This document shows, one piece after another, positions 3,045 to 46,877 of a stretch of 56,122 nucleotides of DNA. The stretch comes from Candidatus Woesearchaeota archaeon (GTDB lineage Archaea > Nanobdellota > Nanobdellia > SCGC-AAA011-G17 > JACQNH01): contig JAHFIJ010000002.1 of NCBI GenBank assembly GCA_023246445.1, forward strand, positions 1-56,122, in the 5' to 3' direction. The notes beneath the pieces are model-generated. The model did no database searches. It worked only from the letters and a program-made list of their open reading frames with translations, and was not told the DNA's origin. Position numbers and translations under genes: made by a program. Numbering within the stretch: position 1 is the first letter of the stretch; each line of letters starts with the position of its first letter.

Positions 3045-5408
3045 ATGAAAAAGGGGCTTATTTTGGTAATCTTATTAATTTTAATACCAATAGCTGGAGC
3101 TTTGGAATTAGAAAGTATAAATAAAAGTGTATTTAATTTAGGGGATAATATAGAAGTTAAAGGGAATATACAAACTGCTTTTAAAGGCGGCTTTAGAATT
3201 AATTTAAATTGCGGCAATGTTGTTTCTTTGATGTTCAAAAATGTTACCTTAGGCGAGAATGCGGAATTTAATGAAGCTGTTAAATTGTATAATGGTGAAG
3301 GGGATTGCAATATAGGCGTGTCTTTAGAGACAAAAGATGGGATTATAGATTATAAAGACAGCAATAAGTTCAGGCTTTCAAGGGATATTAATTCAAGTTT
3401 CTTTAGTGAGAAGGAATTTGTTGCTAAGGGGGAGTCTTTAAGGTTTGGAGGCACTGTTAAGAAAATTTCAGGCTTGGATTTTAGCGGATTAATAACAATT
3501 ACAATAGAAGGCGCATCCAGTAAAGAGGTTTTTACAAAGGATATTAATAATGAGTGGGATTTTGATTTTGATACAGTGAACCGCCCAATTGGAGTTTATA
3601 GGGTGTCTGTAAAATATCAGGATTTATATGGAAATGGCGGGGAATTTAAAGATGTTATAGCTTTTAAGATTTCCAATAAGATCGATTTTGCTTTTGATTT
3701 AGGGAACGGAACTTATTCTCCTAGTGAAACTGTGCCTATAAAAGGAATTATAAAAAATTTTAAAGGAGATCCTGTAAGTGGGAAGGTTAAGATAATTTTT
3801 TTGGATAAAATAACAACTATGGATGTTAATGATGGAAATCTGGCTTATGATCTGAAGTTAGAAGATAATCAAGCAAGCGGGGATTATAATATAGGTTTTA
3901 AGGTAGAAGATGATTTTGGAAATTATGGGGAAAGAGGCTATTCTTTTAGTGTAAGAAAGGTTCCAAAAAGCTTATTGGTGTTTATCAGCAAGAGTGAATT
4001 TTTGCCGAAAGAAGAGGTAAATGCCCAAAGCAAGGTTTTAGATCAGACTGGAAATGAAATAACTGAAGGCAAAAGTGTTAATTTAATTATTTTTGATGCT
4101 AAGGGAAAACAAATTACTGAATGGACAAATGAGCTTAATTATGATTTAGATCAATTTGCTTTGCCTGGGAGATACACAATTGAGGGGAAATTTGAGGATT
4201 TAACCGAGAAAAGCTATTTTTCAGTTATTGGTGTTGAATCTTTAGAAGTTAATTTAGTTAATCAATCAATACTTTTTTTTAATAATGGAAATGTAGTTTA
4301 CAATAAGCAGGTTGAAATTGTTTTTAAAGGGGAAGGAGAAAATAAATTTTTTGAAATTGTAGAATTAAATCCGGGTGAAAGCAGAACGTATCCTTTAAAT
4401 GATAAGGTCAAGAGTGGGACTTATACAATTTTTGTTTTAGCTGATGGAAAAGATTATAGTTTTGATAATTTACTATTAGAAGATAAAAGATCTGTGTTAA
4501 GAAAAACAGGCAATCTGCTAACTGGCGCAGTCGGAGCTATAGGCTCATTAGGTGGGGGGGATTTAGGGGATACTTCCAAAAATATATTACTGGTAATAGT
4601 TGTATTAGCTTTAATATTCTTCTTTATTGTTAACAGGCAAAATAAATTATTGAGACAAATTGGATGGTATATAAAACATTTAGTTGAGAATTATACAGCA
4701 CAGGGCAATATGCTAAACACATTAAAAAAAGCTGTTAAGTCCAAAGGGAAAGAGAAGAAGAAGGTTATGAGTATTTTAAATAAATATCTTGATACTCATA
4801 TTGCAAGAGAATTAATACATAAAGATAAACTTGGCTTAGATTCCGAGAAGAGGGAAATAAGCGTGATGTTTACAGACATAAGAGATTTTACTACATTAGT
4901 CAGCAGCGGAGATCCATGGGTTGTTATGAATATGGTCAATTATTATTTTAAGTCTGTTACTGATATAATATATAAGTATCATGGAACGATAAATAAATAT
5001 CTGGGTGATTCTGTGATGGCTTTATTTAATGCTCCGAGAAAGGTTGAGGGGCATTTATTGATGGCATTAAAAGCGGGTGTTGAGATCTCTAAAGAATTAA
5101 ATAAATTAAACATGAAATTAAAAGAAAAGGGAATAAATGAAATATCTGTTGGGATTGGAATAAGTTCTGGTGAGGCTTTAATTGGAAGTTTTGGGGATAA
5201 ATTTATGGAGTATAGTGCTTTGGGCAATTGTGTTAATCTGGCTTCCAGAATACAGGCTTATGGAACAGGGAATCATGTGTTGATTGATGAGAAAACTTAT
5301 GAAAAAGTTAAAGATAAGGTTGATGTTGTTGAGCATGGAACTTTTGATATTCGTGGAATTGGCAGAATGAAGGTTTATAATGTAACTGATGTTAAAGGGG
5401 AATATTAA
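3045..5408 (+). CDS. Membrane-anchored receptor-type class III adenylate/guanylate cyclase
   Basis: N-terminal hydrophobic signal, then a ~500-aa beta-rich presumed extracellular region and a TM helix (ILLVIVVLALIFFFIV). The cyclase homology domain follows: ISVMFTDIRDFT, KYLGDSVMALFNAP, GIGISSGEALIGSFG, YSALGNCVNLASRIQ. Confidence 0.8.
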   Translation: MKKGLILVILLILIPIAGALELESINKSVFNLGDNIEVKGNIQTAFKGGFRINLNCGNVVSLMFKNVTLGENAEFNEAVKLYNGEGDCNIGVSLETKDGIIDYKDSNKFRLSRDINSSFFSEKEFVAKGESLRFGGTVKKISGLDFSGLITITIEGASSKEVFTKDINNEWDFDFDTVNRPIGVYRVSVKYQDLYGNGGEFKDVIAFKISNKIDFAFDLGNGTYSPSETVPIKGIIKNFKGDPVSGKVKIIFLDKITTMDVNDGNLAYDLKLEDNQASGDYNIGFKVEDDFGNYGERGYSFSVRKVPKSLLVFISKSEFLPKEEVNAQSKVLDQTGNEITEGKSVNLIIFDAKGKQITEWTNELNYDLDQFALPGRYTIEGKFEDLTEKSYFSVIGVESLEVNLVNQSILFFNNGNVVYNKQVEIVFKGEGENKFFEIVELNPGESRTYPLNDKVKSGTYTIFVLADGKDYSFDNLLLEDKRSVLRKTGNLLTGAVGAIGSLGGGDLGDTSKNILLVIVVLALIFFFIVNRQNKLLRQIGWYIKHLVENYTAQGNMLNTLKKAVKSKGKEKKKVMSILNKYLDTHIARELIHKDKLGLDSEKREISVMFTDIRDFTTLVSSGDPWVVMNMVNYYFKSVTDIIYKYHGTINKYLGDSVMALFNAPRKVEGHLLMALKAGVEISKELNKLNMKLKEKGINEISVGIGISSGEALIGSFGDKFMEYSALGNCVNLASRIQAYGTGNHVLIDEKTYEKVKDKVDVVEHGTFDIRGIGRMKVYNVTDVKGEY

Positions 5409-8708: not shown

Positions 8709-9419
8709 TTATTTTTTTGCGATCCGCCATAAAATTTCAAAATATTTTTTATAGCCTTCAGAAATTTCCTTATTTTTGATTACTAAAACAGTAGGATTTT
8801 CTTTGCTCCAGAGAATTATTGCAACTTTGTCACCGTATATATTCACTGCAACAGGGGAAGCATATTTCTGAGGCAAATATTTTATTTCTGCAAATGGAAT
8901 TTTTATGTTTATATCTCTTTGACTAAATAATATTTTGGCTTTAATCTTATGCTCTTTTCTTCTTTTATCAAACCATTTAAAATAAAATTGTAAAACTTCA
9001 TAGGCTATTGGAGAGGCGCCCAAAATAAAAATTTCTTTTTTAGTCTCAATCTGATCTTCCAAGACCATTTTTAATCCCTGCTTTCCTTTATAGAAATTTG
9101 TTTCCTGCTTTTCTTTTTCTTCTTCATAGATCTGGAGCATTTCAGGAAGAATATCTGAGATGATGTGTTCTTTTTCTTTTATAATGTCTAGAAATCTTCT
9201 TGGTGATGAGGCTTCAAACATTTTTCTGTTGTTGTTTTTTATATAACCAATTAAACCTTTTTTGATTAACATCTCAATTGTATCATAAACAGTTCTTCTG
9301 TGTAAGCCTGTTTTTCCTGAGATTAGACCTGCTTGGGATGGTCCTAACTCTAATAATGCTTTGTAAACCAGAGCTTCGTTTTTTGTTAAATTTAATTCCA
9401 TCAGTTTTGAAATTTCCAT
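8709..9419 (-). CDS. TrmB-family transcriptional regulator
   Basis: N-terminal wHTH (LTKNEALVYKALLELGPSQAGLISGKTGLHRRTVYDTIEMLIKKGLI). Paralog of 45289-46038. Confidence 0.75.
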   Translation of the reverse strand: MEISKLMELNLTKNEALVYKALLELGPSQAGLISGKTGLHRRTVYDTIEMLIKKGLIGYIKNNNRKMFEASSPRRFLDIIKEKEHIISDILPEMLQIYEEEKEKQETNFYKGKQGLKMVLEDQIETKKEIFILGASPIAYEVLQFYFKWFDKRRKEHKIKAKILFSQRDINIKIPFAEIKYLPQKYASPVAVNIYGDKVAIILWSKENPTVLVIKNKEISEGYKKYFEILWRIAKK

Positions 9420-20299: not shown

Positions 20300-20419
20300 A
20301 AGTAATTGATAATAATTAGTTTTAAAAAGTCTGTTTTTCAAGGTTTTAAGATGGAAAATGAGCAAATTATAGAGGTTAGGGAATCTAAGCATAGTAAAAT
20401 AGGGTATATTAAGGATAAA
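20300..20419 (+). repeat. Direct repeat copy 2: functional secE promoter and 5' coding end
   Basis: 116/120 identical to 17451-17570 and continuous with intact secE. Confidence 0.9.
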
Positions 20420-20587
20420 TTGAAAAGCTTTTTAAGGGAATGTTTTAGAGTCTTACAGTTAACTAAGAAGCCAACCAAGGAAGAATTCAAAATAATTATA
20501 AAGGTTTCTTTGATAGGAATAGCGTTAATAGGCTTAATAGGGTTTTTAGTCCTATTGTTTAGCCAATTAATAAAAGGATTAATATGA
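20351..20587 (+). CDS. secE: Protein translocase subunit SecE (Sec61-gamma)
   Basis: KPTKEEF is followed by a single TM (IIIKVSLIGIALIGLIGFLVLLF). It holds the conserved position upstream of spt5-rpl11. ATG is at 20351. Confidence 0.85.
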   Translation: MENEQIIEVRESKHSKIGYIKDKLKSFLRECFRVLQLTKKPTKEEFKIIIKVSLIGIALIGLIGFLVLLFSQLIKGLI

Positions 20588-21090
20588 CAGAACAAATTGT
20601 AGAAGAAAGCCCAAAGATATATGCTTTAAGAACAACTGCAAATAGAGAGGATCAGGTATTTGATTTTATAATAGCTAATTTAGGAAAGAAAAATTTAGAG
20701 GTTTATAGCCTATTAAGACCTCATAGTTTAAGGGGGTATATATTTGTTGAGGCTAAGGATTTTGAAAATGTGGAAGAGGCTGCTTCTGGTGTTCCTTATG
20801 CAAGAGGAGTATTGCCCAGAACTGTTAATTATTCAGAGATAGAACATATGTTAGAACAGGTTAAATCTGCAGTTGCTATACAAAAGAATGATATTGTTGA
20901 GATAATATCCGGCCCATTTAAAAGAGAAAAGGCTAAGATAACAAGGATAGATACCCAAAAAGAGGAAGTTGTAGTTGAATTATTAGAATCTGCTGTTCCA
21001 ATTCCATTAACATTAAAAATAGATTCTGTGAAGGTTATAAGAAGAGAATCCGAGGAAGGAGAAAGCGAAGAGGATAAGAAAGAGGAATAA
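20584..21090 (+). CDS. spt5: Transcription elongation factor Spt5 (NusG)
   Basis: NGN domain (IYALRTTANREDQV, GYIFVEA) plus KOW (IVEIISGPFKREKAKITRID). ATGA overlap with secE. Confidence 0.9.
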   Translation: MTEQIVEESPKIYALRTTANREDQVFDFIIANLGKKNLEVYSLLRPHSLRGYIFVEAKDFENVEEAASGVPYARGVLPRTVNYSEIEHMLEQVKSAVAIQKNDIVEIISGPFKREKAKITRIDTQKEEVVVELLESAVPIPLTLKIDSVKVIRRESEEGESEEDKKEE

Positions 21091-21091
21091 A

Positions 21092-21874
21092 ATGGCAGAT
21101 GAAAAAATAGAATTTATGGTGGAAGGTGGAAAGGCTGCTGCTAATGCTCAAATTAGTCAAAAATTAGGACCGATGAAGATTAATATAGCTGAGGTTATGA
21201 AAAAGATTAATGAAAAAACTTCTGATATGAGTGGGATGCAGGTTCCTGTAAAATTACTAATTGATATTAAGACTAAAGAATATAAGATCGATATTGGAAC
21301 ACCACCTGTTGCTGAATTAATCAAAAAAGAATTAAGTTTGGAAAAAGGATCTGCAACTCCAAATACTGAAAAAAAAGGAAATTTAGGCTTTGAACAAATA
21401 ATTAAAATCGCTAAAATAAAACAAGCCTCTATGTTTACTAACAGTTTGAAATCTGCTGTTAAATCAGTTATAGGGAGCGCTGCTAGCATGGGTGTTTTGG
21501 TTGAGGGCAAGACTCCTTTAGAAATAAATCCTGAAGTTATAAATGGACAATATGATACTATGATTAAGGAAGAGAAAACTGAAATCAGTGCTGATAAAAA
21601 AGAATTATTAAATAAGCAACTGGAAGAAGTTAATAAAAGATTAAAGAAAGAGTTAGAGAGATTAAAGGCTGAAGAAGAGGCTGAGAAGGCTGCTGTTGTT
21701 GCTCCTACTGCAGAAGTCAAGGTAGAGGGTGAGGTTAAGGCTGAGGGAGAAGCTGGAAAATCTGAAGCTGGAAAGATTGCTCCAGGTGTTGAAGTCAAGG
21801 CCGGAGCTAAGCCTGAAGCTGGAAAGACTGAAGCTAAAAAACCAGAAGCCAAGCCTGAAGCAAAGAAGAAATAA
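21092..21874 (+). CDS. rpl11: Ribosomal protein uL11 with ~100-aa K/E/A-rich C-terminal tail
   Basis: GGKAAANAQISQKLGPMKINI and TPPVAELIKKE. From about residue 160 onward there is a coiled-coil-like then AEGEAGKSEAGK...KPEAKPEAKKK tail. Confidence 0.9.
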   Translation: MADEKIEFMVEGGKAAANAQISQKLGPMKINIAEVMKKINEKTSDMSGMQVPVKLLIDIKTKEYKIDIGTPPVAELIKKELSLEKGSATPNTEKKGNLGFEQIIKIAKIKQASMFTNSLKSAVKSVIGSAASMGVLVEGKTPLEINPEVINGQYDTMIKEEKTEISADKKELLNKQLEEVNKRLKKELERLKAEEEAEKAAVVAPTAEVKVEGEVKAEGEAGKSEAGKIAPGVEVKAGAKPEAGKTEAKKPEAKPEAKKK

Positions 21875-32922: not shown

Positions 32923-33201
32923 TCATAATTCTATTCCTTCAAGAATTGCTTTTTTTAAGTTTGGATTTGTGTTGTCAATCCAAGTTATTCCCTTTAGCGT
33001 CACGGCGATTTTGTTGCTTTTTTCTAAATATCCAAGAATCAACATCAGCGTATTGTGGTTTACTTTTCTTGGTAACTTCCTTTTGAGTTCGGCTATAGAA
33101 ATGATACTATCATTCATTTTTTTTAAAGTATCTTCTACCATAATAACTGTGTTTAATGTTGCCCAATGAACTTTTTTCTCTCTGAGGTTTATTAGTGCCA
33201 T
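32923..33201 (-). CDS. Small wHTH-like protein (92 aa)
   Basis: IISIAELKRKLPRKVNHNTLMLILGYLEKSNKIAV. Size and pattern resemble small wHTH proteins of archaeal plasmids and viruses. Confidence 0.45.
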   Translation of the reverse strand: MALINLREKKVHWATLNTVIMVEDTLKKMNDSIISIAELKRKLPRKVNHNTLMLILGYLEKSNKIAVTLKGITWIDNTNPNLKKAILEGIEL

Positions 33202-39940: not shown

Positions 39941-40042
39941 ATGGCGTTATAGCCTTAAATCTTTTATAAGCTTTTCCATTTTATAGTAGTTACATTATAA
40001 AATATAGGTAGGTTTTTAAATATAAATCTTAAGAAAACTTTA

Positions 40043-40684
40043 ATGGCAGAAATAAAGAAAGGGGATTTTGTGGAATTAGAGTATGTAGGAAAGTTAAGCA
40101 CTGGAGAAGTGTTTGATCTAACCAATAAAGAGGATGCTAAAAAATTTAATTTATTTGATGAGAAAGCAGAATATAAGCCTAGAGTTATTTGTGTGGGGGA
40201 AAATGAAATTTTAAAGCCAATAGATGATTTTTTGATTGGGAAAGAAACAGGGAAAAGCTATAATATAGAGATTAAAAAAGAAGATACAAAATGGAAAAGA
40301 GACCCAAGCCTGATAAGGGTGATGAATTCTAATTCATTAAGAGACCAGAATATTAAGCCTTATCCTGGGATGAGTTTAGTTATAGATGATGTAATAGCAA
40401 GAGTAGTAAGTGTTTCTGGTGGAAGATTAGTAATTGATTTTAATCATCCACTGGCTGAAAAGGATGTTTCATATGATCTGAAACCATTAAAAATAGTTGA
40501 AGATATTAATGAGAAATTAAAAGCAGTTATGTTTAGTCATTTTTCTTATCATGAGAGCATAGAATTTAAAAATGGAAAAGTAAATTTATTTAATATACCC
40601 AAAGAATTCCAGGATAAAGTAGGGGAAAGATTAAAGGCATTAATTAAAGAGGTTAAAATAGTGGATTTTAAGGAAAGGAAGTGA
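40043..40684 (+). CDS. FKBP-type peptidyl-prolyl isomerase (SlyD-like)
   Basis: GDFVELEYVGKLSTGEVFD, an IF-domain-like insert, and VIDFNHPLAEKDV. Confidence 0.85.
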   Translation: MAEIKKGDFVELEYVGKLSTGEVFDLTNKEDAKKFNLFDEKAEYKPRVICVGENEILKPIDDFLIGKETGKSYNIEIKKEDTKWKRDPSLIRVMNSNSLRDQNIKPYPGMSLVIDDVIARVVSVSGGRLVIDFNHPLAEKDVSYDLKPLKIVEDINEKLKAVMFSHFSYHESIEFKNGKVNLFNIPKEFQDKVGERLKALIKEVKIVDFKERK

Positions 40685-40776
40685 TGTTTTTAATACATTT
40701 AATACAGTATAAATATGTTTAAATAGGGGGTGTGTTCTTATTATAGAATAGATACTGTATAAAAAGAGAGGATAAA

Positions 40777-41901
40777 ATGGATCAGTTTTCTCAACAATCA
40801 CAACAAAAAACAGAAAATAAGAATGCTTACCTGAAGCAAAGCACTAATTATTCTAATCCTTTGGATGCTGAGTTAGAGCAGTTATTAGCCAAGCAAAGAG
40901 CAAAGATAAAAGTAGTTGGCTGTGGCGGAGGAGGAAATAATACAATTAACAGAATGAGCGATGTTGGGATTACAGGTGTTGAAACTATAGCTATAAATAC
41001 AGATGCTCAAGATTTGCTTTATACAAATGCCAATACTAAAATTTTGATCGGTAAAGAATTAACACAAGGTTTAGGGGCTGGTGGGATTCCAACTGTAGGG
41101 GAACAGGCTGCCAAAGAATCAGAGCATGAGATAAAGTCTAAACTGCAGGGAGCAGATATGATATTTATTACCTGTGGATTAGGTGGGGGAACAGGAACCG
41201 GCTCTGTTTCTGTAGTTGCTGATGTTGCTAAGAAATTAGGATGTTTAAGTGTTGGTGTTGTGACAATGCCATTTCAGATGGAGGGGCAGAGAAGATACGA
41301 AAATGCTGTTTGGGGTTTGGAGAAATTAGAAAATGTAGTGGATACGTTAATTGTAATACCCAATGATAAATTATTAGAATTAGCACCTGATTTGCCATTG
41401 CATACTGCTTTTAAGATCGCTGATGAAATTTTAACTAATGCTGTTAAAGGGATTGCAGAATTAGTAACAAGATCTGGTCTGGTAAATTTAGATTTTGCTG
41501 ATATAAAAACTGTAATGAGTGACGGTGGGGTTTCAATGATTGGTGTTGGAGAGGCAGATTCAGAAGACAGGGCTATTGCTGCTGTTGACAGGGCGATTAG
41601 CAATCCATTATTAGATGTTGATATCTCTGGTGCAACTGGTGCATTGGTTAATGTTTCGGGTGGGACTGATATGACCTTACAGGAAGCAAGGCAAGTAGTT
41701 GAAAGAGTATCTGAAAAATTAAGCCAGGATGCTAAAATAATATGGGGGGCACAGATTTCAGAGGATTTAGAAGGGACAATAAGAGTATTATTAATTGTTA
41801 CAGGGGTAAGTTCACCTCAAATCTTTGGTCCTAAAAGAAAAATGTCACAGAAAGAAACTGAAGAGATTGGGGGGGAATTAGGGATTGAGTTTATTAATTA
41901 A
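40777..41901 (+). CDS. ftsZ: Cell division GTPase FtsZ
   Basis: GCGGGGNNTINRM, tubulin signature GLGGGTGTGS, and NLDFADIKTVM. Confidence 0.95.
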   Translation: MDQFSQQSQQKTENKNAYLKQSTNYSNPLDAELEQLLAKQRAKIKVVGCGGGGNNTINRMSDVGITGVETIAINTDAQDLLYTNANTKILIGKELTQGLGAGGIPTVGEQAAKESEHEIKSKLQGADMIFITCGLGGGTGTGSVSVVADVAKKLGCLSVGVVTMPFQMEGQRRYENAVWGLEKLENVVDTLIVIPNDKLLELAPDLPLHTAFKIADEILTNAVKGIAELVTRSGLVNLDFADIKTVMSDGGVSMIGVGEADSEDRAIAAVDRAISNPLLDVDISGATGALVNVSGGTDMTLQEARQVVERVSEKLSQDAKIIWGAQISEDLEGTIRVLLIVTGVSSPQIFGPKRKMSQKETEEIGGELGIEFIN

Positions 41902-41902
41902 A
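41746..41902 (+). repeat. Direct repeat copy 1: 3' end of intact ftsZ
   Basis: 157 nt. Differs from 43918-44073 by 3 substitutions and one G in a G-run. Confidence 0.9.
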
Positions 41903-42361
41903 ATGAAAACAGAAGATATTGGCAAAAATAAAAGTAATGAAGAAATTGTGTGGTATCTTATTGTTTTAGACAGTGGTGCCAGCAGCGCAAATATCTCTCG
42001 GGTTGATGTTACTGAAATGATCTTGCGTGGTAGAAGGCCAAATGCAGGGGATATAGGGAGATTTGCTCCAGATTATGTTTTTAAACCATGTTTTCATTCC
42101 CCTGAACCAAAAAAGGGGATTGATTTTGAATATTGCGGTTGGTTAAAGGATATTTTAAAGTATTCTCCAAATATTCCTAAAGCGAAACATGATTGTTCTG
42201 ATCCATGTTGGCGTGCTAAAGTTACTAAACATACTTTCGCTGGACTGAAATGTAAATTTGTTTCTTTAGAGGGAAGAATTCATGCTGTTTGGAAAAAAAG
42301 AATTCCTGTTCCGATTTATGGGTCTTTAAATGAATATTTTGCTGAAAAAGATCTTTCTTGA
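41903..42361 (+). CDS. Hypothetical Cys-rich protein
   Basis: ATG begins immediately after the repeat. Cys-containing motifs are CFH, YCGW, HDCSDPCW and LKCK. GC-richer than neighbours. Confidence 0.5.
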   Translation: MKTEDIGKNKSNEEIVWYLIVLDSGASSANISRVDVTEMILRGRRPNAGDIGRFAPDYVFKPCFHSPEPKKGIDFEYCGWLKDILKYSPNIPKAKHDCSDPCWRAKVTKHTFAGLKCKFVSLEGRIHAVWKKRIPVPIYGSLNEYFAEKDLS

Positions 42362-42470
42362 GCTTTTTGATCTATATTTCCAAATAACGAAATATTTATT
42401 TTAGTGATAACAATTGGTATGTTGTAAGAAAGATAAAACCCCTGAATAAATAACTTTTCTTATTATTTGT

Positions 42471-42510
42471 TTTTTTAGTATACCATTTTTAGTAAATAAA
42501 TATTTATATA
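42471..42510 (+). repeat. 40-nt repeat copy A (TTTTTTAGTATA-N4-TTTTAGTAAATAAATATTTATATA)
   Basis: 36/40 identical to 46045-46084. Overlaps the 3' end of the ATPase gene. Confidence 0.7.
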
Positions 42511-43802
42511 CTAATTTCTTCAATAAGGAATTTCCATAATGGGATAAATTTTATTCCCTCTTCTTTTTTTTCTATATTTTTTGTAAGCAGTATAAGTTCC
42601 CTTGTTTTCTTGAATGCTGCCTTAAAATCGTATAAAGATTTTATTTCTCGTTCCGGAATTTTATCAGTATAAGTCACATTTATTGCAGTCAGGGAGTGAT
42701 CGTGATTTTTTATAATGAAATCAACTTCTGTTTCTTTTTTGGACTTCCAATAATAAGCTTCAGCGCCCCTTCTTTTTAAATCAATGAACACCTGGTTTTC
42801 AGCAAGTTTGCCTTCATCACCAGAGAATTTAAAGGAGACTGCGTTTCTTAAACCATTGTCTATGCAATATACTTTTGAAGCTCGGCTTTTCTGTTCCTTC
42901 ATAGAATAAGCGAAGTGGTCTATAGTAAATAAAAGAAATGCTTCATTAGTATAGGATAAATAATCTTTTATGGCTTCGTAAGATAAACCTAAGCTATTTC
43001 TAACATTTCTTAAAGAAACGAATCCCGTTATGTTTGTCATTAGATATTTTATAAATTCGCTTGTTTTCTTGCTGTTAAGATTATGTCTATCTATGATATC
43101 TTTGAAGAGGATATCGTTGAAGTATTGATCTAACAGTTTTGTTTTGAAGTCTTTTTCTTGAAAGAAAACTTTAGGGAACCCGCCCTGTAATAAATATTCA
43201 TTAAGAGATTTTAGTATGAGGTATTTTTCTTTTTCGAGAAATATCCCCTTAACTGCTTTTGAAAAATCAAGATTAATCCCATTAAAAATCAAGAACTCTT
43301 TAAAACTAAGAGGATACACTTCAAAAGTAAGATTCCTCCCAGTCAGTAGTGTTGCATATTCTTTTTTTAGGAGATAAGAACAAGAGCCAGATACAACGAA
43401 CTTACAGTTGGTCTTCAAATCATAATGTCTTCTTATCCATGCTTCCCATTTGTCTTTTTTGTGAATTTCATCAAAGAATATATAGGCTTTCTTAGCAGGA
43501 TTTAGGTTTGATCTGTATGTTTGGTAAATGTCTTCAAGACTGTCTTCTGTAAAACGAGTATCTTCAAGATTGACGAAAAGAATTTGTTCTGGTTCTACTT
43601 CTTTTTTTAGCAAACGTTCTATCATTTGATACATAAATGTGCTTTTTCCAGATCTTCTTACCCCCAGAATAATAGTTATCTCTTCTATATCTACTGATTT
43701 AACAAGAAGGGAATAATTCAAACGAGGCTTTCCTTTTAGTTCATCAGGCACTTGTTTTGTCGACCACCAAGGGTTTGCTTCTGCGAGTTTTTGTATTTCC
43801 AT
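42504..43802 (-). CDS. AAA+ ATPase with DUF4143-like C-terminal domain (COG1373 type)
   Basis: Walker A GVRRSGKST, Walker B IFFDEIH, and a C-terminal region typical of this ATPase family. Confidence 0.85.
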   Translation of the reverse strand: MEIQKLAEANPWWSTKQVPDELKGKPRLNYSLLVKSVDIEEITIILGVRRSGKSTFMYQMIERLLKKEVEPEQILFVNLEDTRFTEDSLEDIYQTYRSNLNPAKKAYIFFDEIHKKDKWEAWIRRHYDLKTNCKFVVSGSCSYLLKKEYATLLTGRNLTFEVYPLSFKEFLIFNGINLDFSKAVKGIFLEKEKYLILKSLNEYLLQGGFPKVFFQEKDFKTKLLDQYFNDILFKDIIDRHNLNSKKTSEFIKYLMTNITGFVSLRNVRNSLGLSYEAIKDYLSYTNEAFLLFTIDHFAYSMKEQKSRASKVYCIDNGLRNAVSFKFSGDEGKLAENQVFIDLKRRGAEAYYWKSKKETEVDFIIKNHDHSLTAINVTYTDKIPEREIKSLYDFKAAFKKTRELILLTKNIEKKEEGIKFIPLWKFLIEEISI

Positions 43803-43849
43803 TTTATGTCCGAAATGCTTATATTATCGTTGTAAATCGACTATATAAA

Positions 43850-43902
43850 TGTTACGGTGTAGCATAGCATTTAGGCTATTTTTGTTACGGTGTAGCATAG
43901 CA
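43850..43902. repeat. Two perfect 20-nt direct repeats TGTTACGGTGTAGCATAGCA, 33-nt period
   Basis: Located at 43850-43869 and 43883-43902, 48-100 nt upstream of the ATPase ATG (43802), just beyond a TATA-like CTATATAAA. Confidence 0.8.
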
Positions 43903-43917
43903 ATATTCTCTCTAATA

Positions 43918-44073
43918 GGGGCACAGATTTCAGAGGATTTAGAAGGGACAATAAGAGTATTATTAATTGTTACAGGAGTTAATTCACCTCAAATCTTTGG
44001 TCCTAAAAGAAAAATGTCACAGAAAGAAACTGAAGAGATTGGGGGGAATTAGGGATTGAGTTTATTAATTAAA
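43918..44073 (+). pseudogene. Orphan ftsZ 3' fragment (direct repeat copy 2), frameshifted
   Basis: Encodes GAQISEDLEGTIRVLLIVTGVNSPQIFGPKRKMSQKETEEIGG and then loses frame (G6 versus G7). Confidence 0.9.
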
Positions 44074-45192
44074 TTCAGTAATTTGTTGATTTTTAATTGT
44101 TTTTATTAAGATAGGCTTAATTACATCTCCATTAAAATCAAATTTTATTATACCTGAAACGCCTTGAAAATTATTAATGTTATATAACCAATCCTTGATT
44201 TTTTGGCTATTTGGGCCCACTTCTTTTATTGCAGTTGCTAGTAACATAGTTGCATCATAGGAATTTGCTGCGTAAATATCTGGGTCTTTACTATATCTTG
44301 ATTTATAATCTTCTACAAAGCTTTTTGTTGGTTCTGATTGCGATCTTAGATCAAAATTTGGTGTGTGAAAAATAACATTTTCTGCTGCTCCTCCTGCAAT
44401 TTTTATTATTTCTGGTTGCGCAAAACCTTCTGGAGCTAACCATCGTTTATTAATCCCTAATTCTTTAGCTTGTTTTAATACTAAACCTTGTTCTTTTAAT
44501 CCAACAAGAAATATTGCTTCTGGATCTTTTGCTTTTATTTTTGTTAATTGGGTTTTAAAATCAGTTGCATCAGTTTCGTAAGTTTCTGATATTAAAATAT
44601 CCCCACCCGATTCTGTAAAGTATTTATTGAAAGCTTTTGAAGTCCCAACCCCATAATCATTGTTTATATGAATAATTGCAATTTTATTAATGTTTAAATT
44701 TTCTTTGACAAATTTTACAAATAATTTCTCATCGTAATTTGAATTTGGAATATTACTAAACACATAATCTCCAGCTTCTGAAATTAACGGACTTTTTGCG
44801 CCTACGTTTAATAGTATTATTTCCTTTTCGTTTGCTAGAGGGGCGGTAGATAATACCACGCCGCTAATGGCAGTTATAACTACAGGGATGTTTTCCATTA
44901 AACTGAGAGTAGTAACAGCGGTTTTTGGATCCCCTTTAGAATCTTCGTAGGTTATCTTTAACCCCTTTCCATTTATACCTCTATTTTTATTGATTTCTTC
45001 TACTGCTAATTCTATACCTGATTCCATACTTTGACCATAAATGGCTGCATTTCCGCTTAATGGTAATAAAGCACCTATTTCAATGTTTTTATCTGTGGTT
45101 TTTAAAACTTTAAATGTGAGTGTTAGTATAACAATGAGAATTACTACAAATAGTATACTCCCAATGATTTTTCTTTTTGTGTTAGTTTCCAT
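44065..45192 (-). CDS. Leu/Ile/Val-binding-protein-like ABC substrate-binding protein, TM-anchored
   Basis: N-terminal TM, IGALLPLSGNAAIYG, and a type-I periplasmic-binding fold pattern. No adjacent permease or ATPase. Confidence 0.8.
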   Translation of the reverse strand: METNTKRKIIGSILFVVILIVILTLTFKVLKTTDKNIEIGALLPLSGNAAIYGQSMESGIELAVEEINKNRGINGKGLKITYEDSKGDPKTAVTTLSLMENIPVVITAISGVVLSTAPLANEKEIILLNVGAKSPLISEAGDYVFSNIPNSNYDEKLFVKFVKENLNINKIAIIHINNDYGVGTSKAFNKYFTESGGDILISETYETDATDFKTQLTKIKAKDPEAIFLVGLKEQGLVLKQAKELGINKRWLAPEGFAQPEIIKIAGGAAENVIFHTPNFDLRSQSEPTKSFVEDYKSRYSKDPDIYAANSYDATMLLATAIKEVGPNSQKIKDWLYNINNFQGVSGIIKFDFNGDVIKPILIKTIKNQQITEFN

Positions 45193-45288
45193 TTTTATCT
45201 TGTTGGATATATATGATGCAGTATATAAGATTGTGTTGTCTATTTAATATACAATAACTTTAAATAATCTTAAAAGAATAGATAAGAT

Positions 45289-46038
45289 ATGAATAAAGAG
45301 ACTTTGCTAAAATTGGGGCTTTCAAGAAGAGAGGTTGAGGTTTATTACACTTTATTAAGCGTGGAAGAGGCATTAGCTTCAGGAATCTCAGAAAATACGT
45401 ATGAATCCAGAACTAATATCTATGATACTTTAAATTCTTTAATTAAAAAAGGTCTTGTTAGTTATGTAATAAAAAACAATCGTAAATACTTTATGAGTAC
45501 TAATCCTAAAAAACTGTTAGAATGGATTGAATTAAAAAAAGAAGAGGTAGAGAAAGAGGAAAAAATAGTTGAAAGTTTAATACCTGATTTGTTAAAGTTA
45601 AAACTACCAAAAGAAAAAAAGGTTGTGGTTGAAGTTTACGAAGGAAAAGAAGGACTTAGAACAATGTTTAAAGAAACTATTGAATCGTCAAGAGAGACTA
45701 AAAAAGAGTTTCTAATATTCGGGGCAATTGCTGGTGTTTTAAGAGAGTTAGATCCCATATACCATGAGAGGTATTATAAAGAACGAAAAAAATATAAGAT
45801 AAAATCAAGATATATATTTATTGAAGGAGAAAAACATCCAATAGCTCCTTATTCAGAATACAAATATCTCCCAAAAGTTTACAAGAGTTTTGTTGCAACA
45901 ACAGTTCACGGAGATGAAGTTTCTTTTTGGTTATTAACTAAACCTGAAATTGTTATATTAATTAAAAGTAAAGATCTAGCTGAAACTTACAGGAATAATT
46001 TTGAAGTTTTATGGAAATTTGCAAAATTTAAATGTTAA
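45289..46038 (+). CDS. TrmB-family transcriptional regulator
   Basis: wHTH LSRREVEVYYTLLSVEEALASGISENTYESRTNIYDTLNSLIKKGLV. Paralog of 8709-9419. Confidence 0.75.
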   Translation: MNKETLLKLGLSRREVEVYYTLLSVEEALASGISENTYESRTNIYDTLNSLIKKGLVSYVIKNNRKYFMSTNPKKLLEWIELKKEEVEKEEKIVESLIPDLLKLKLPKEKKVVVEVYEGKEGLRTMFKETIESSRETKKEFLIFGAIAGVLRELDPIYHERYYKERKKYKIKSRYIFIEGEKHPIAPYSEYKYLPKVYKSFVATTVHGDEVSFWLLTKPEIVILIKSKDLAETYRNNFEVLWKFAKFKC

Positions 46039-46044
46039 AATTCA

Positions 46045-46084
46045 TTTTTTAGTATAATGTTTTTAGTAAATAAATATTTATATA
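46045..46084 (+). repeat. 40-nt repeat copy B, probable promoter region of the Zn-ribbon/bud32 unit
   Basis: Partner of 42471-42510. Ends in TTTATATA about 50 nt upstream of the ATG at 46136. Confidence 0.7.
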
Positions 46085-46135: not shown

Positions 46136-46231
46136 ATGATAGTTAAGTGTGAATCATGTGGCTTAGAATTCAGAATGTTAAATAGTGTTGAAGATTCTGA
46201 ATATTATTGTGAGAAATGCAGAAGCGAGTAG
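46136..46231 (+). CDS. 31-aa zinc-ribbon micro-protein
   Basis: MIVKCESCGLEFRMLNSVEDSEYYCEKCRSE. ATG lies 8 nt after GAGGTGA. Confidence 0.4.
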   Translation: MIVKCESCGLEFRMLNSVEDSEYYCEKCRSE

Positions 46232-46268: not shown

Positions 46269-46877
46269 ATGAAAGAATTATCAAGAGGGGCTGAAGCAGT
46301 ATTATATTTAAATAGAGATAGAGTAGTTAAAAAAAGGATTTCTAAGGGTTATAGGATTAAAGAAATAGATTTAGAGATTAGAAAATTAAGAACCAGAAGT
46401 GAAGGCAAGATTTTAGAGAGGGTTAATGTTGATAAGCCCAGAGTTTATAACGTGAATGAAAGGGAAATGGAGATAGAAATGGGTTTTGTTAATGGCAAGG
46501 TTTTAAGAGATGTTTTAGATAATTTAAATGATAATGAAAGAGTTAAGGTTTGCGGGTTAATCGGGGTGGGTATAGGGAAGATGCATTCTCAGGATATAAT
46601 ACATGGAGATTTAACAACTTCTAATTTTATTTATGATGGTGAAAAGGTTTATTTTATAGATTTTGGCTTGAGTTATTTTAGCAAAAGAGATGAAGATAAG
46701 GCTGTGGATTTGAGATTATTGAAGCAAGCATTGGATGCCAAGCATTATTTTTATAGTAAAGAGTGTTTTGAAGCAATATTAAACGGCTATAAGGGATATA
46801 ATAAAGATTTTAAGATTGTTTTAGAGAGATTGAATAAGGTTGAATCAAGAGGAAGATATAAACATAAAAATAATTAA
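46269..46877 (+). CDS. bud32: KEOPS kinase Bud32
   Basis: RGAEAVLY, IIHGDLTTSNFI, FIDFGLS and ESRGRYK. ATG at 46269 lies inside the longer track ORF. Confidence 0.85.
   Translation: MKELSRGAEAVLYLNRDRVVKKRISKGYRIKEIDLEIRKLRTRSEGKILERVNVDKPRVYNVNEREMEIEMGFVNGKVLRDVLDNLNDNERVKVCGLIGVGIGKMHSQDIIHGDLTTSNFIYDGEKVYFIDFGLSYFSKRDEDKAVDLRLLKQALDAKHYFYSKECFEAILNGYKGYNKDFKIVLERLNKVESRGRYKHKNN

Follow-up and report, generated by a model that had tools for sequence, protein, structure and literature searches.

How a gene can be gained beside a housekeeping gene with no integrase or transposase at hand is the question raised by a locus of a Candidatus Woesearchaeota archaeon. In the stretch of DNA analyzed here (56,122 nt, contig JAHFIJ010000002.1; below, the window), the 3' end of the ftsZ gene is present twice, and the block between the two copies holds two open reading frames (ORFs), one of 152 amino acids (aa) and one for an AAA ATPase of the candidate defense family PDC-S01. 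A reading made from the sequence alone had regarded both as cargo inserted between ftsZ and the convergent gene of a substrate-binding protein. The simplest description of the locus is that of two non-identical copies of one segment, running from the ftsZ end to the first 40 nt of a conserved element designated D5, with the ATPase unit (42511-43917) placed at the joint between them. The feature is a real recombination scar which marks the gain of a candidate defense gene, and the ATPase gene with its own promoter is the sole real accessory unit of the locus.

Two interleaved repeat pairs around the ATPase unit

The intact ftsZ gene (40777-41901, plus strand) codes for a Tubulin/FtsZ GTPase domain followed by FtsZ_C (Pfam Tubulin, 3.8e-48; FtsZ_C, 1e-35), and with its position in the conserved eIF5A-FKBP-ftsZ neighborhood this identifies the product as FtsZ. 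The repeat scan aligned 41746-41874 with 43918-44046 (129 nt, 98% identity) and 41870-41902 with 44041-44073 (33 nt, 100% identity), the second match being offset by one base. Combined, they form a single direct repeat with a start-to-start spacing of 2172/2171 nt, composed of the working copy R1 (41746-41902, plus strand, 157 nt), which comprises the final 156 nt of ftsZ and one further base, and the orphan copy R2 (43918-44073, plus strand, 156 nt). A repeat of such length in 56 kb is far beyond chance. From R1 to R2 there are three substitutions (41805 G>A, 41808 A>T and 41810 G>A), and a run of seven G in R1 (41869-41875) corresponds to six G in R2 (44041-44046). Intact ftsZ ends EEIGGELGIEFIN, and due to the missing G the frame running through R2 (43849-44052) ends EEIGGN. 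In these points the repeat scan and the ORF listing bore out the sequence-only reading, which had also placed the start of the first ORF directly after the repeat; its ATG is at 41903, the first base past R1. The 67-aa ORF at 43849-44052 is most likely not a gene but a by-product of the scar, in which the sequence upstream of the ATPase gene is fused to the frameshifted ftsZ tail.

A second repeat pair was found in the same region. D5a (42471-42510, plus strand), which repeats as an orphan the initial 40 nt of a zinc-ribbon gene's promoter region, is identical at 37 of 40 positions (92.5%) to D5b (46045-46084, plus strand), the working copy located 5' of that gene. The two pairs interleave in the order R1, D5a, R2, D5b, and both orphans flank the ATPase unit, D5a overlapping the stop codon of the ATPase gene and R2 abutting its promoter. 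The first copy of the duplicated segment contains the 152-aa ORF and the second contains the genes of the substrate-binding protein and of a TrmB-family regulator.

The origin of the orphans was traced by comparison with three sister species, represented by the loci L001, L086 and L166 (all compared loci carry such L numbers), which are about equally far from the window, with 81-86% nucleotide identity in the ftsZ 3' end. R2 is 98% identical to R1 and 84-86.5% identical to the ftsZ ends of the three species. D5a shows 92.5% identity to D5b, as against 84.6% to the sequence following the ORF in L001 and 81.8% to that preceding the zinc-ribbon gene in L166. Because of these differences in identity, R2 and D5a are, as judged from alignment, recent copies from the same species. 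At two of the three variable sites R2 has the L166/L086 state and R1 the derived one: R1 reads GTAAGT (Val-Ser), GTTAAT is present in R2, L166 and L086, and L001 has GTGAAT (still Val-Asn). Since R2 retains the L166/L086 state where R1 is derived, it is not simply a decaying copy of today's R1.

The ATPase gene (42504-43802, minus strand) is the only truly accessory gene of the block. Its product matches the PADLOC profile PDLC04787 of PDC-S01 over its full length (residues 25-429, 3.7e-106), with the Pfam domains AAA_14 at residues 41-171 (1.3e-37) and DUF4143 at residues 235-378 (1.3e-22), in agreement with the previous assignment to the COG1373-type AAA ATPases. DUF4143 has been placed in the PD-(D/E)XK superfamily (PMC3424549). 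PDC-S01 (COG1373), an ATPase fused to a PD-(D/E)XK domain, is very abundant in Archaea and has been repeatedly transferred; it belongs to the PDC group, whose candidates mostly still await experimental validation, and is itself a candidate that has not been validated (PMC12988326). The window protein corresponds to this family in profile match and domain order, and an antiviral role is accordingly a candidate function only. Neither PMC12988326 nor PMC3424549 mentions PDC-S01 as a repeat-flanked unit or the two-operator promoter described below.

The promoter region of the gene (43803-43917, minus strand) contains a TATA-like box at about 43842-43849 and two identical 20-nt operator-like sites at 43850-43869 and 43883-43902, of which no further copy was found in the window. 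Scans of both ORFs of the block against Pfam, PADLOC and NCBIfam, confined to the block, revealed no recombinase or transposase family, in line with what had been noticed from the sequence.

The slot downstream of ftsZ and its native genes

In L086 the ftsZ stop codon is followed by 4 nt, D5 and the zinc-ribbon gene, so that the slot between ftsZ and D5 is empty, and R and D5 are the two edges of one slot. In L001 it is occupied by a homologue of the 152-aa ORF, which starts 0 nt past the ftsZ stop and is followed by 24 nt, D5 and the zinc-ribbon gene, and neither the duplication nor the ATPase gene is present. The order in L166 is ftsZ, the ORF homologue (1 nt past the stop, as in the window), the binding-protein gene (minus strand), the TrmB gene, D5, the zinc-ribbon gene and the RIO kinase gene; no ATPase gene, no R2 and no second D5 were found there. 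A D5 homologue thus precedes the zinc-ribbon gene in all three species. Relative to L166, the DNA specific to the window is 42362-44064, comprising a 109-nt spacer, D5a, the ATPase gene, its 115-nt upstream region and R2. The addition of extra DNA in tandem at the ftsZ end, as proposed earlier, is upheld.

The 152-aa ORF (41903-42361, plus strand) was claimed to be foreign cargo, and this does not hold. Because its homologue directly follows ftsZ in L001 and L166, neither of which has the duplication or the ATPase gene, the ORF is a vertically inherited neighbor of ftsZ in this clade, and because of the gene order in L166 its ancestral place is between ftsZ and the binding-protein gene. The ancestral state was then not, as had been supposed, ftsZ converging directly on the binding-protein gene. 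Vertical inheritance of both genes combined with a local duplication had been named as the outcome which would speak against an insertion; it applies to the ORF but not to the ATPase gene, which is absent from L001, L086 and L166.

The ORF product belongs to an orphan family with three members among 1.8 billion representatives (the window protein and the homologues P0002, 44% identical, and P0003). No match to the 152-aa protein was obtained in Pfam, NCBIfam, PADLOC or the PDB sequences, so the profile searches suggested earlier gave nothing; its AlphaFold model has a predicted local distance difference test score of 59.6, and Foldseek against the PDB returned no fold match (best E-value 0.23). 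The label "Cys-rich" was an overstatement, as there are five cysteines in 152 residues and two of them are conserved in the relatives. The suspected co-occurrence with DUF4143 ATPases was not seen either, no such ATPase being located beside the other two family members. In L166 the homologue (L166:555-973) is interrupted, with a 103-aa frame and the conserved C-terminal part in another frame; it may be decaying, or the contig may contain an error. The idea that the ORF codes for a novel recombinase was rejected, as it is inherited vertically beside ftsZ and disrupted in L166.

The genes of copy 2 are, on the L166 gene order, also native to the slot. The substrate-binding protein (44065-45192, minus strand; Peripla_BP_6, Pfam 1.3e-54, with an NCBIfam match, of the branched-chain amino acid/urea type) has an orthologue in the same place in L166 (76% nucleotide identity). 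The TrmB-family regulator (45289-46038, plus strand; Pfam 3.4e-13) is likewise present in L166, and the distant relatives L006, L008 and L013 have TrmB-like genes 2-2.4 kb downstream of ftsZ. The last nine bases of the binding-protein gene fall inside R2, and this overlap had been taken as the sign of a native ftsZ end. It is based on an ATTAAA hexamer (44068-44073), which is the end of R and at the same time forms the codons of the conserved C-terminal Phe-Asn of the binding protein; the L166 gene ends with the same ATTAAA. The boundary between R2 and the binding-protein gene is a microhomology joint and not an old native overlap.

When the spacer between the ORF and D5a (42362-42470) was compared with the window, L001, L086 and L166, the similarity did not exceed that of shuffled controls. 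Beyond the slot, the backbone following ftsZ in the window's clade consists of D5, a zinc-ribbon ORF of 31-33 aa, the RIO kinase gene and a gene for a protein of 150-180 aa. In the window the zinc-ribbon ORF (46136-46231, plus strand; 31 aa, MIVKCESCGLEFRMLNSVEDSEYYCEKCRSE) is kept as in L001, L086 and L166 and has a weak match to FmdB-type zinc ribbons, and the RIO/Bud32-type kinase (46269-46877, plus strand) shows 72-78% identity to those of the three species. The zinc-ribbon ORF, a CxxC...CxxC frame situated between the ftsZ slot and the kinase gene with D5 as its own promoter, is absent from the gene listing.

In a wider circle of relatives, ftsZ is followed by secE, nusG and the L11 gene in 108 loci with enough downstream sequence, and the upstream order eIF5A-(190-aa gene)-FKBP-ftsZ is conserved. 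The best matches of the window's ftsZ are found in metagenome-assembled genomes of Woesearchaeota/Nanoarchaeota, and its product shares 94% aa identity with that of L001. Because many of these loci hold 0.3-5.6 kb of unrelated genes between ftsZ and secE (range L005-L165), the region just past ftsZ is an insertion hotspot of long standing. In the window's clade the secE-nusG-L11 genes have left this position; in the window they are located at 20351-21874, the site of another repeat-flanked cassette (cassette 1). Both former partners now carry such cassettes, one at the ftsZ end and one at the secE start (17451/20300). In L064 the region from ftsZ to secE (L064:5133-10578) contains three paralogous RHS/YD-like toxin genes with differing C-terminal ends and a DUF4143 ATPase gene, a block which looks like a polymorphic-toxin array in the same hotspot.

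Repeat-flanked cassettes elsewhere and the origin of orphan ends

More than 2000 homologues of the ATPase were detected at E <= 1e-30, many of them 60-79% identical, over Nanoarchaeota, Micrarchaeota, Altiarchaeota and Asgard lineages. Two GTTAC(N6)CGTAAC-like sites were present at the TATA box of the homologues in L167, L169, L170, L173, L174 and L175, which represent several archaeal phyla. Both sites are upstream of the box in the window, L167 and L169, and one is on each side of it in L170 and L173-L175. The paired 20-nt sites are probably autoregulatory operators, a putative role suggested by this conserved placement.

Repeats of the end of a neighboring gene, 41-72 nt long, flank the ATPase in three of the seven other homologue loci examined: 41 nt in L167, 50 nt in L169 and 72 nt in L170/L171 (two independent assemblies). 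The units in L167 and L170 consist of a single gene, and those of L169 and the window hold further ORFs (small ones in L169). As in the window, the orphan copy is on the promoter side, about 110-140 nt before the ATG in L167 and L170 and 862 nt before it in L169, and in all three the working end of the convergent gene is located 24-96 nt past the ATPase stop. A related arrangement was found in L173 (Micrarchaeota; 40-231, 1223-1294 and 2731-2961), where pieces of a nearby 86-aa gene are located in permuted order on both sides of the PDC-S01 gene, the later piece upstream of the promoter and the earlier one after the stop, which is the topology of R2 and D5a. L174 and L175 have no repeats of at least 35 nt. 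In L064 the repeats flanking the ATPase gene belong to the copies of the RHS-like gene. ATPase units of 68-79% identity occupy four different targets with four different repeats.

The same architecture also occurs with other cargo and no ATPase. The window itself contains three repeat-flanked cassettes in its 56 kb. In L049 (8985-9791) the ftsZ end is duplicated over 57 nt, exactly as far as the stop codon, around a ParE/YoeB-like gene and a gene for an 85-aa winged helix-turn-helix (wHTH) protein, the latter 51% identical to the 92-aa protein of window cassette 3 (32923-33201); the two repeat copies differ at five positions, all synonymous. Repeats of 46 nt enclose a PIN pair in L086, and repeats of 56 nt enclose HEPN, nucleotidyltransferase and two more genes in L033. 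Further repeats were found in L057 (88 nt), L025 (65 nt) and L032 (57 nt), and a nucleoside phosphorylase is a further kind of cargo. The repeat length among comparable cassettes ranges from 40 to 193 nt. No recognizable recombinase was found in the window block or, by precomputed Pfam annotation, in the ATPase cassettes examined; the cargo of L025 and L032 was not scanned.

Core genes can be bracketed in the same manner. In L007 a 120-nt direct repeat (5072-5194 and 9112-9234) surrounds about 4 kb with ftsZ and a glutamyl/glutaminyl-tRNA synthetase-like gene, and its first copy begins where a probable signal-peptidase-II (lspA-like) gene ends, its second at the ftsZ stop; the synthetase-like gene was named from its sequence and the lspA-like gene by eye, with no family scan. 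As the usual eIF5A-FKBP synteny upstream of ftsZ is missing in L007, such repeats also mark rearrangements of core genes.

The origin of the orphan ends was evaluated by counting synonymous and non-synonymous differences between native and orphan copies, the synonymous share expected for in-situ duplication followed by neutral decay being 0.37. Ten cassettes pooled gave 28 synonymous versus 8 non-synonymous differences, the latter mostly conservative (binomial P = 6e-7), and the result persisted when the window's three cassettes were left out (P = 7e-6). Due to this synonymous excess, both copies must have diverged as working gene ends, so that the incoming DNA carried a gene end of its own. 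The orphan ends derive, as the pattern of substitutions suggests, from foreign working alleles.

Proposed integration by homologous recombination and its alternatives

Insertion-duplication of the Campbell type, in which circular DNA is integrated by one homologous crossover, is familiar from the "pop-in" of suicide vectors used in the genetics of archaea and bacteria and from the ectopic integration of circularized fragments in transformable bacteria. The explanation we lean towards is a natural event of this kind: a single-crossover, homology-anchored integration of a circularized chromosomal fragment from a conspecific strain, with no integrase or transposase involved. The circular intermediate, the donor strain and the order of events are reconstructed here from what was observed, namely the anatomy of the locus, the synteny, the accessory ATPase, the recurrence of the layout and the allelic orphan ends.

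The starting point would be the variable slot, with the ftsZ stop codon as its left edge and D5 as its right edge. In a conspecific donor the PDC-S01 gene with its promoter (42511-43917) would have been located just past the first 40 nt of D5. A donor segment which began 157 nt ahead of the ftsZ stop and extended as far as the end of the ATPase promoter would have been closed to a circle, leaving an illegitimate joint at 43917/43918, and the circle would have recombined with the recipient chromosome in the shared ftsZ tail; a crossover in D5 would give the same product with donor and recipient swapped. The expected product is ftsZ-R1-(ORF-spacer-D5a)-ATPase-promoter-R2-(binding protein-TrmB-D5b)-zinc ribbon, in which R1 would keep ftsZ intact, and R2, free to decay, would have lost a G. 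The copy beside R2 has no 152-aa ORF, which may have been lost earlier in the recipient or deleted later between the two ATTAAA hexamers. Possible histories are a 2.17-kb circle entering a recipient without the ORF, a 3.57-kb circle entering an L001-like recipient, or integration into an L166-like recipient with subsequent deletion between the ATTAAA hexamers. All three would need the joints D5(40)/ATPase and promoter/R-start. The structure could excise again through recombination between the repeats.

The anatomy agrees with Campbell-type integration in two respects. R ends one base past the ftsZ stop and D5 starts where the slot ends in L001, L086 and L166. Moreover, the DNA is colinear with the relatives' chromosomes, as R1-ORF-spacer-D5a follows the order of L001, and R2-binding protein-TrmB-D5b follows that of L166 past its ORF. 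The likeness extends to direct repeats equal to the incoming homologous segment, the lack of a dedicated recombinase, a possible pop-out and copies which may differ as alleles. The differences are that the event here is a natural one in an uncultured DPANN archaeon, that the homologous segment spans a variable slot so that the copies hold different genes, and that the circle is deduced.

Several points weigh against this explanation. No conspecific donor allele, empty allele or circle was seen, the nearest relatives being other species. The explanation requires an earlier insertion of the ATPase unit at D5 in the donor, and either a recipient which lacked the ORF or a subsequent deletion. Nor is the 109-nt spacer accounted for, L001 having 24 nt at the same position. 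The R1 and R2 of this cassette alone differ by two synonymous changes, one conservative Ser/Asn change and one frameshift, too few to be informative. In the sequencing run described below, the contigs hold a single merged version of the repeat (the R2 substitutions with 7 G), and linkage over the 157-nt repeat is based on two assemblies. The binding-protein gene, at about 4, has half the depth of the backbone, at about 8.5, and there is a second haplotype splitting off at 44106. Because of the halved depth and the second haplotype, the population is heterogeneous.

Site-specific integration in trans appears unlikely. Here a cassette with a replacement ftsZ 3' end would be inserted by a tyrosine or serine recombinase encoded elsewhere in the genome. 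The end of the repeat at the ftsZ stop codon (+1 nt in the window, exactly at the stop in L049) fits this idea, and so do the mostly synonymous differences between orphan and native ends, which an element obliged to provide a working gene end would show, as well as the ftsZ/secE hotspot in many Woesearchaeota and the presence of three such cassettes in 56 kb. Phage 21/e14 in icd and elements in tRNA genes carry such a replacement 3' end of the target gene, and the likeness includes a working gene end beside the insert, an orphan end on the far side and largely synonymous differences; those elements encode or depend on a site-specific integrase, however, and have a fixed core and target. Here neither ORF of the block matches a recombinase family, none was annotated beside the ATPase cassettes examined, and when the joints between orphan and promoter were compared by eye in the window, L167 and L170, no conserved core was apparent. 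The targets differ between related ATPase units, the repeat lengths vary from 40 to 193 nt, the DNA within the repeats is colinear with the relatives' chromosome, unlike a dedicated element, and the L007 repeats bracket core genes.

In-situ rearrangement is just as improbable. It would consist of a template switch or a tandem duplication of the region from the ftsZ end to D5 (about 2.7 kb, L166-like) which captured the ATPase unit, followed by reciprocal loss of binding protein-TrmB from copy 1 and of the 152-aa ORF from copy 2. Both orphans do copy local sequence just 2.2 and 3.6 kb away, R2 is close to R1, the joint of R2 and the binding-protein gene lies in a 6-nt microhomology as in illegitimate deletion, no gene is present twice, and the window data are compatible with both R1 changes having arisen after the duplication. 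However, three events would be needed while R diverged by 2.5%, the spacer contains no remnant of the binding-protein or TrmB gene, and the source of the ATPase unit is left unexplained. As a general route, in-situ duplication is contradicted by the synonymous excess pooled over ten cassettes.

An assembly artefact or a free circle is very improbable. In that case the chromosome would read ftsZ-R-binding protein, with R-ORF-D5a-ATPase-promoter being a separate 2.17-kb circle or belonging to another strain. The reads were approached through the only public DNA run with the stretch, a groundwater metagenome containing 96% of its sampled words, which was examined as k=31 contigs; the metatranscriptome of that sample gave no match. 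As a repeat of 157 nt is too long for such contigs to bridge, circle, tandem and empty forms are indistinguishable in them. The four junctions (ftsZ body-R1, R1-ORF, ATPase upstream-R2 and R2-binding protein) are each crossed by contigs and none contradicts the assembly, although at k=31 they would fit a circle plus an empty site equally well. The uneven contig depths (ORF 6.0, ATPase 9.4, binding protein about 4.0, ftsZ/backbone about 8.5; too noisy to interpret), the one merged repeat version, and the several related Woesearchaeota and second haplotype in the sample also leave room for this alternative.

Against it, a 1644-nt contig (depth 9.4) leads from the ATPase gene across the region upstream of that gene and reaches 30 nt into R2; because it spans 43917/43918, this joint exists in the reads, and it shares no k-mer with the sequence upstream in ftsZ. 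A second assembly (ENA ERZ27297570, 12,173-bp contig) has the same order and spacing of the ATPase gene, the 67-aa orphan frame (R2 with 6 G), which is also called there, and the binding-protein, TrmB and RIO genes, so that two assemblies give promoter-R2(6 G)-binding protein. The same ATPase gene is also present in a Logan contig of run SRR14366766. Each repeat version is tied to its own flanks by variants 28-60 nt apart, within one read, and the frameshifted version adjoins the binding-protein gene; as a chromosomal ftsZ end it would kill ftsZ. The architecture also recurs in independent assemblies of other studies. Contigs built from the reads and the second assembly both contain the junctions. 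The tandem arrangement as assembled is very probably correct.

A second haplotype or organism is present in the sample at 44106. The window has a 32-nt piece of the binding-protein gene end (44075-44106) in common with another sequence, which diverges at 44106 (CGAGATGTATTAGTTACGG...) and had no match in the window or among the loci compared. Within the binding-protein gene, 44077-45000 is a low-depth stretch.

It is highly improbable that the PDC-S01 protein, with its AAA+ ATPase and PD-(D/E)XK parts, cuts the target and inserts its own gene with a long target duplication, although four of eight PDC-S01 loci (the window counted) are repeat-flanked with the same polarity and 60-79% identity across distant archaeal phyla is a sign of frequent transfer. 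The same architecture occurs with PIN, HEPN and nucleotidyltransferase, ParE/YoeB-like and wHTH, or nucleoside phosphorylase cargo and no ATPase; allelic orphan ends do not fit cut-and-fill target duplication; and besides the three other loci lacking repeats of at least 35 nt, a fourth (L064) has repeats belonging to the RHS-like gene copies. A transposon with target duplication was rejected, as there is no transposase, there are no inverted ends (the short-range scan of 40000-46000 lists no inverted pair at either end of the block, the other scans reporting direct repeats only) and the duplication is 157 nt long (40-193 nt in comparable cases), and a homing endonuclease was rejected because homing leaves no duplication.

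Besides Campbell-type integration, two known systems resemble the favored mechanism. Homology-facilitated illegitimate recombination, reportedly described in 2002 by de Vries and Wackernagel and by Prudhomme et al., likewise combines a short anchor of homology at one side with illegitimate joining at the other, and has microhomology joints such as the ATTAAA here; its classical outcome, however, replaces recipient DNA with no duplicated anchor, in naturally transformable bacteria and not in archaea. Tycheposons are similar in having small cargo blocks at a recurrent site by a conserved gene, bounded by partial copies of it, but they carry or depend on tyrosine recombinases and target tRNA genes, and neither applies to the ftsZ-end cassette. 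What looks new is that the architecture recurs in DPANN archaea, that it is linked with PDC-S01 units and that the orphan ends bear an allelic signature.

We tentatively propose, with some doubt prevailing, that small defense and toxin-antitoxin genes of DPANN archaea (perhaps also of other streamlined lineages) travel as recombinase-free "pop-in/pop-out" cassettes, in which a piece of a housekeeping gene on the circle acts as a portable attachment site for host recombination; the window's three cassettes and the repeat-flanked PDC-S01 units would then represent one mobility mode undescribed for archaea. If this is true, each integration recreates the repeats that permit the next excision.

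DPANN archaea have tiny genomes with few recognizable mobile elements, yet their accessory genes vary greatly between strains. On the explanation favored here, the locus shows base by base one integrase-free route of gene gain, by host homologous recombination on 40-160 nt of a conserved gene end with ftsZ left intact. The synonymous-excess test separates scars of an incoming allele from in-situ duplications and can be used on integrase-less, repeat-flanked cassettes of uncultured lineages. PDC-S01, among the commonest candidate defense genes in Archaea, emerges as a self-contained unit with a conserved two-operator promoter, often at the joint of a duplicated target, which gives a context for tests of its function. 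Excision between the repeats would make any gene beside a conserved gene transferable within the population.

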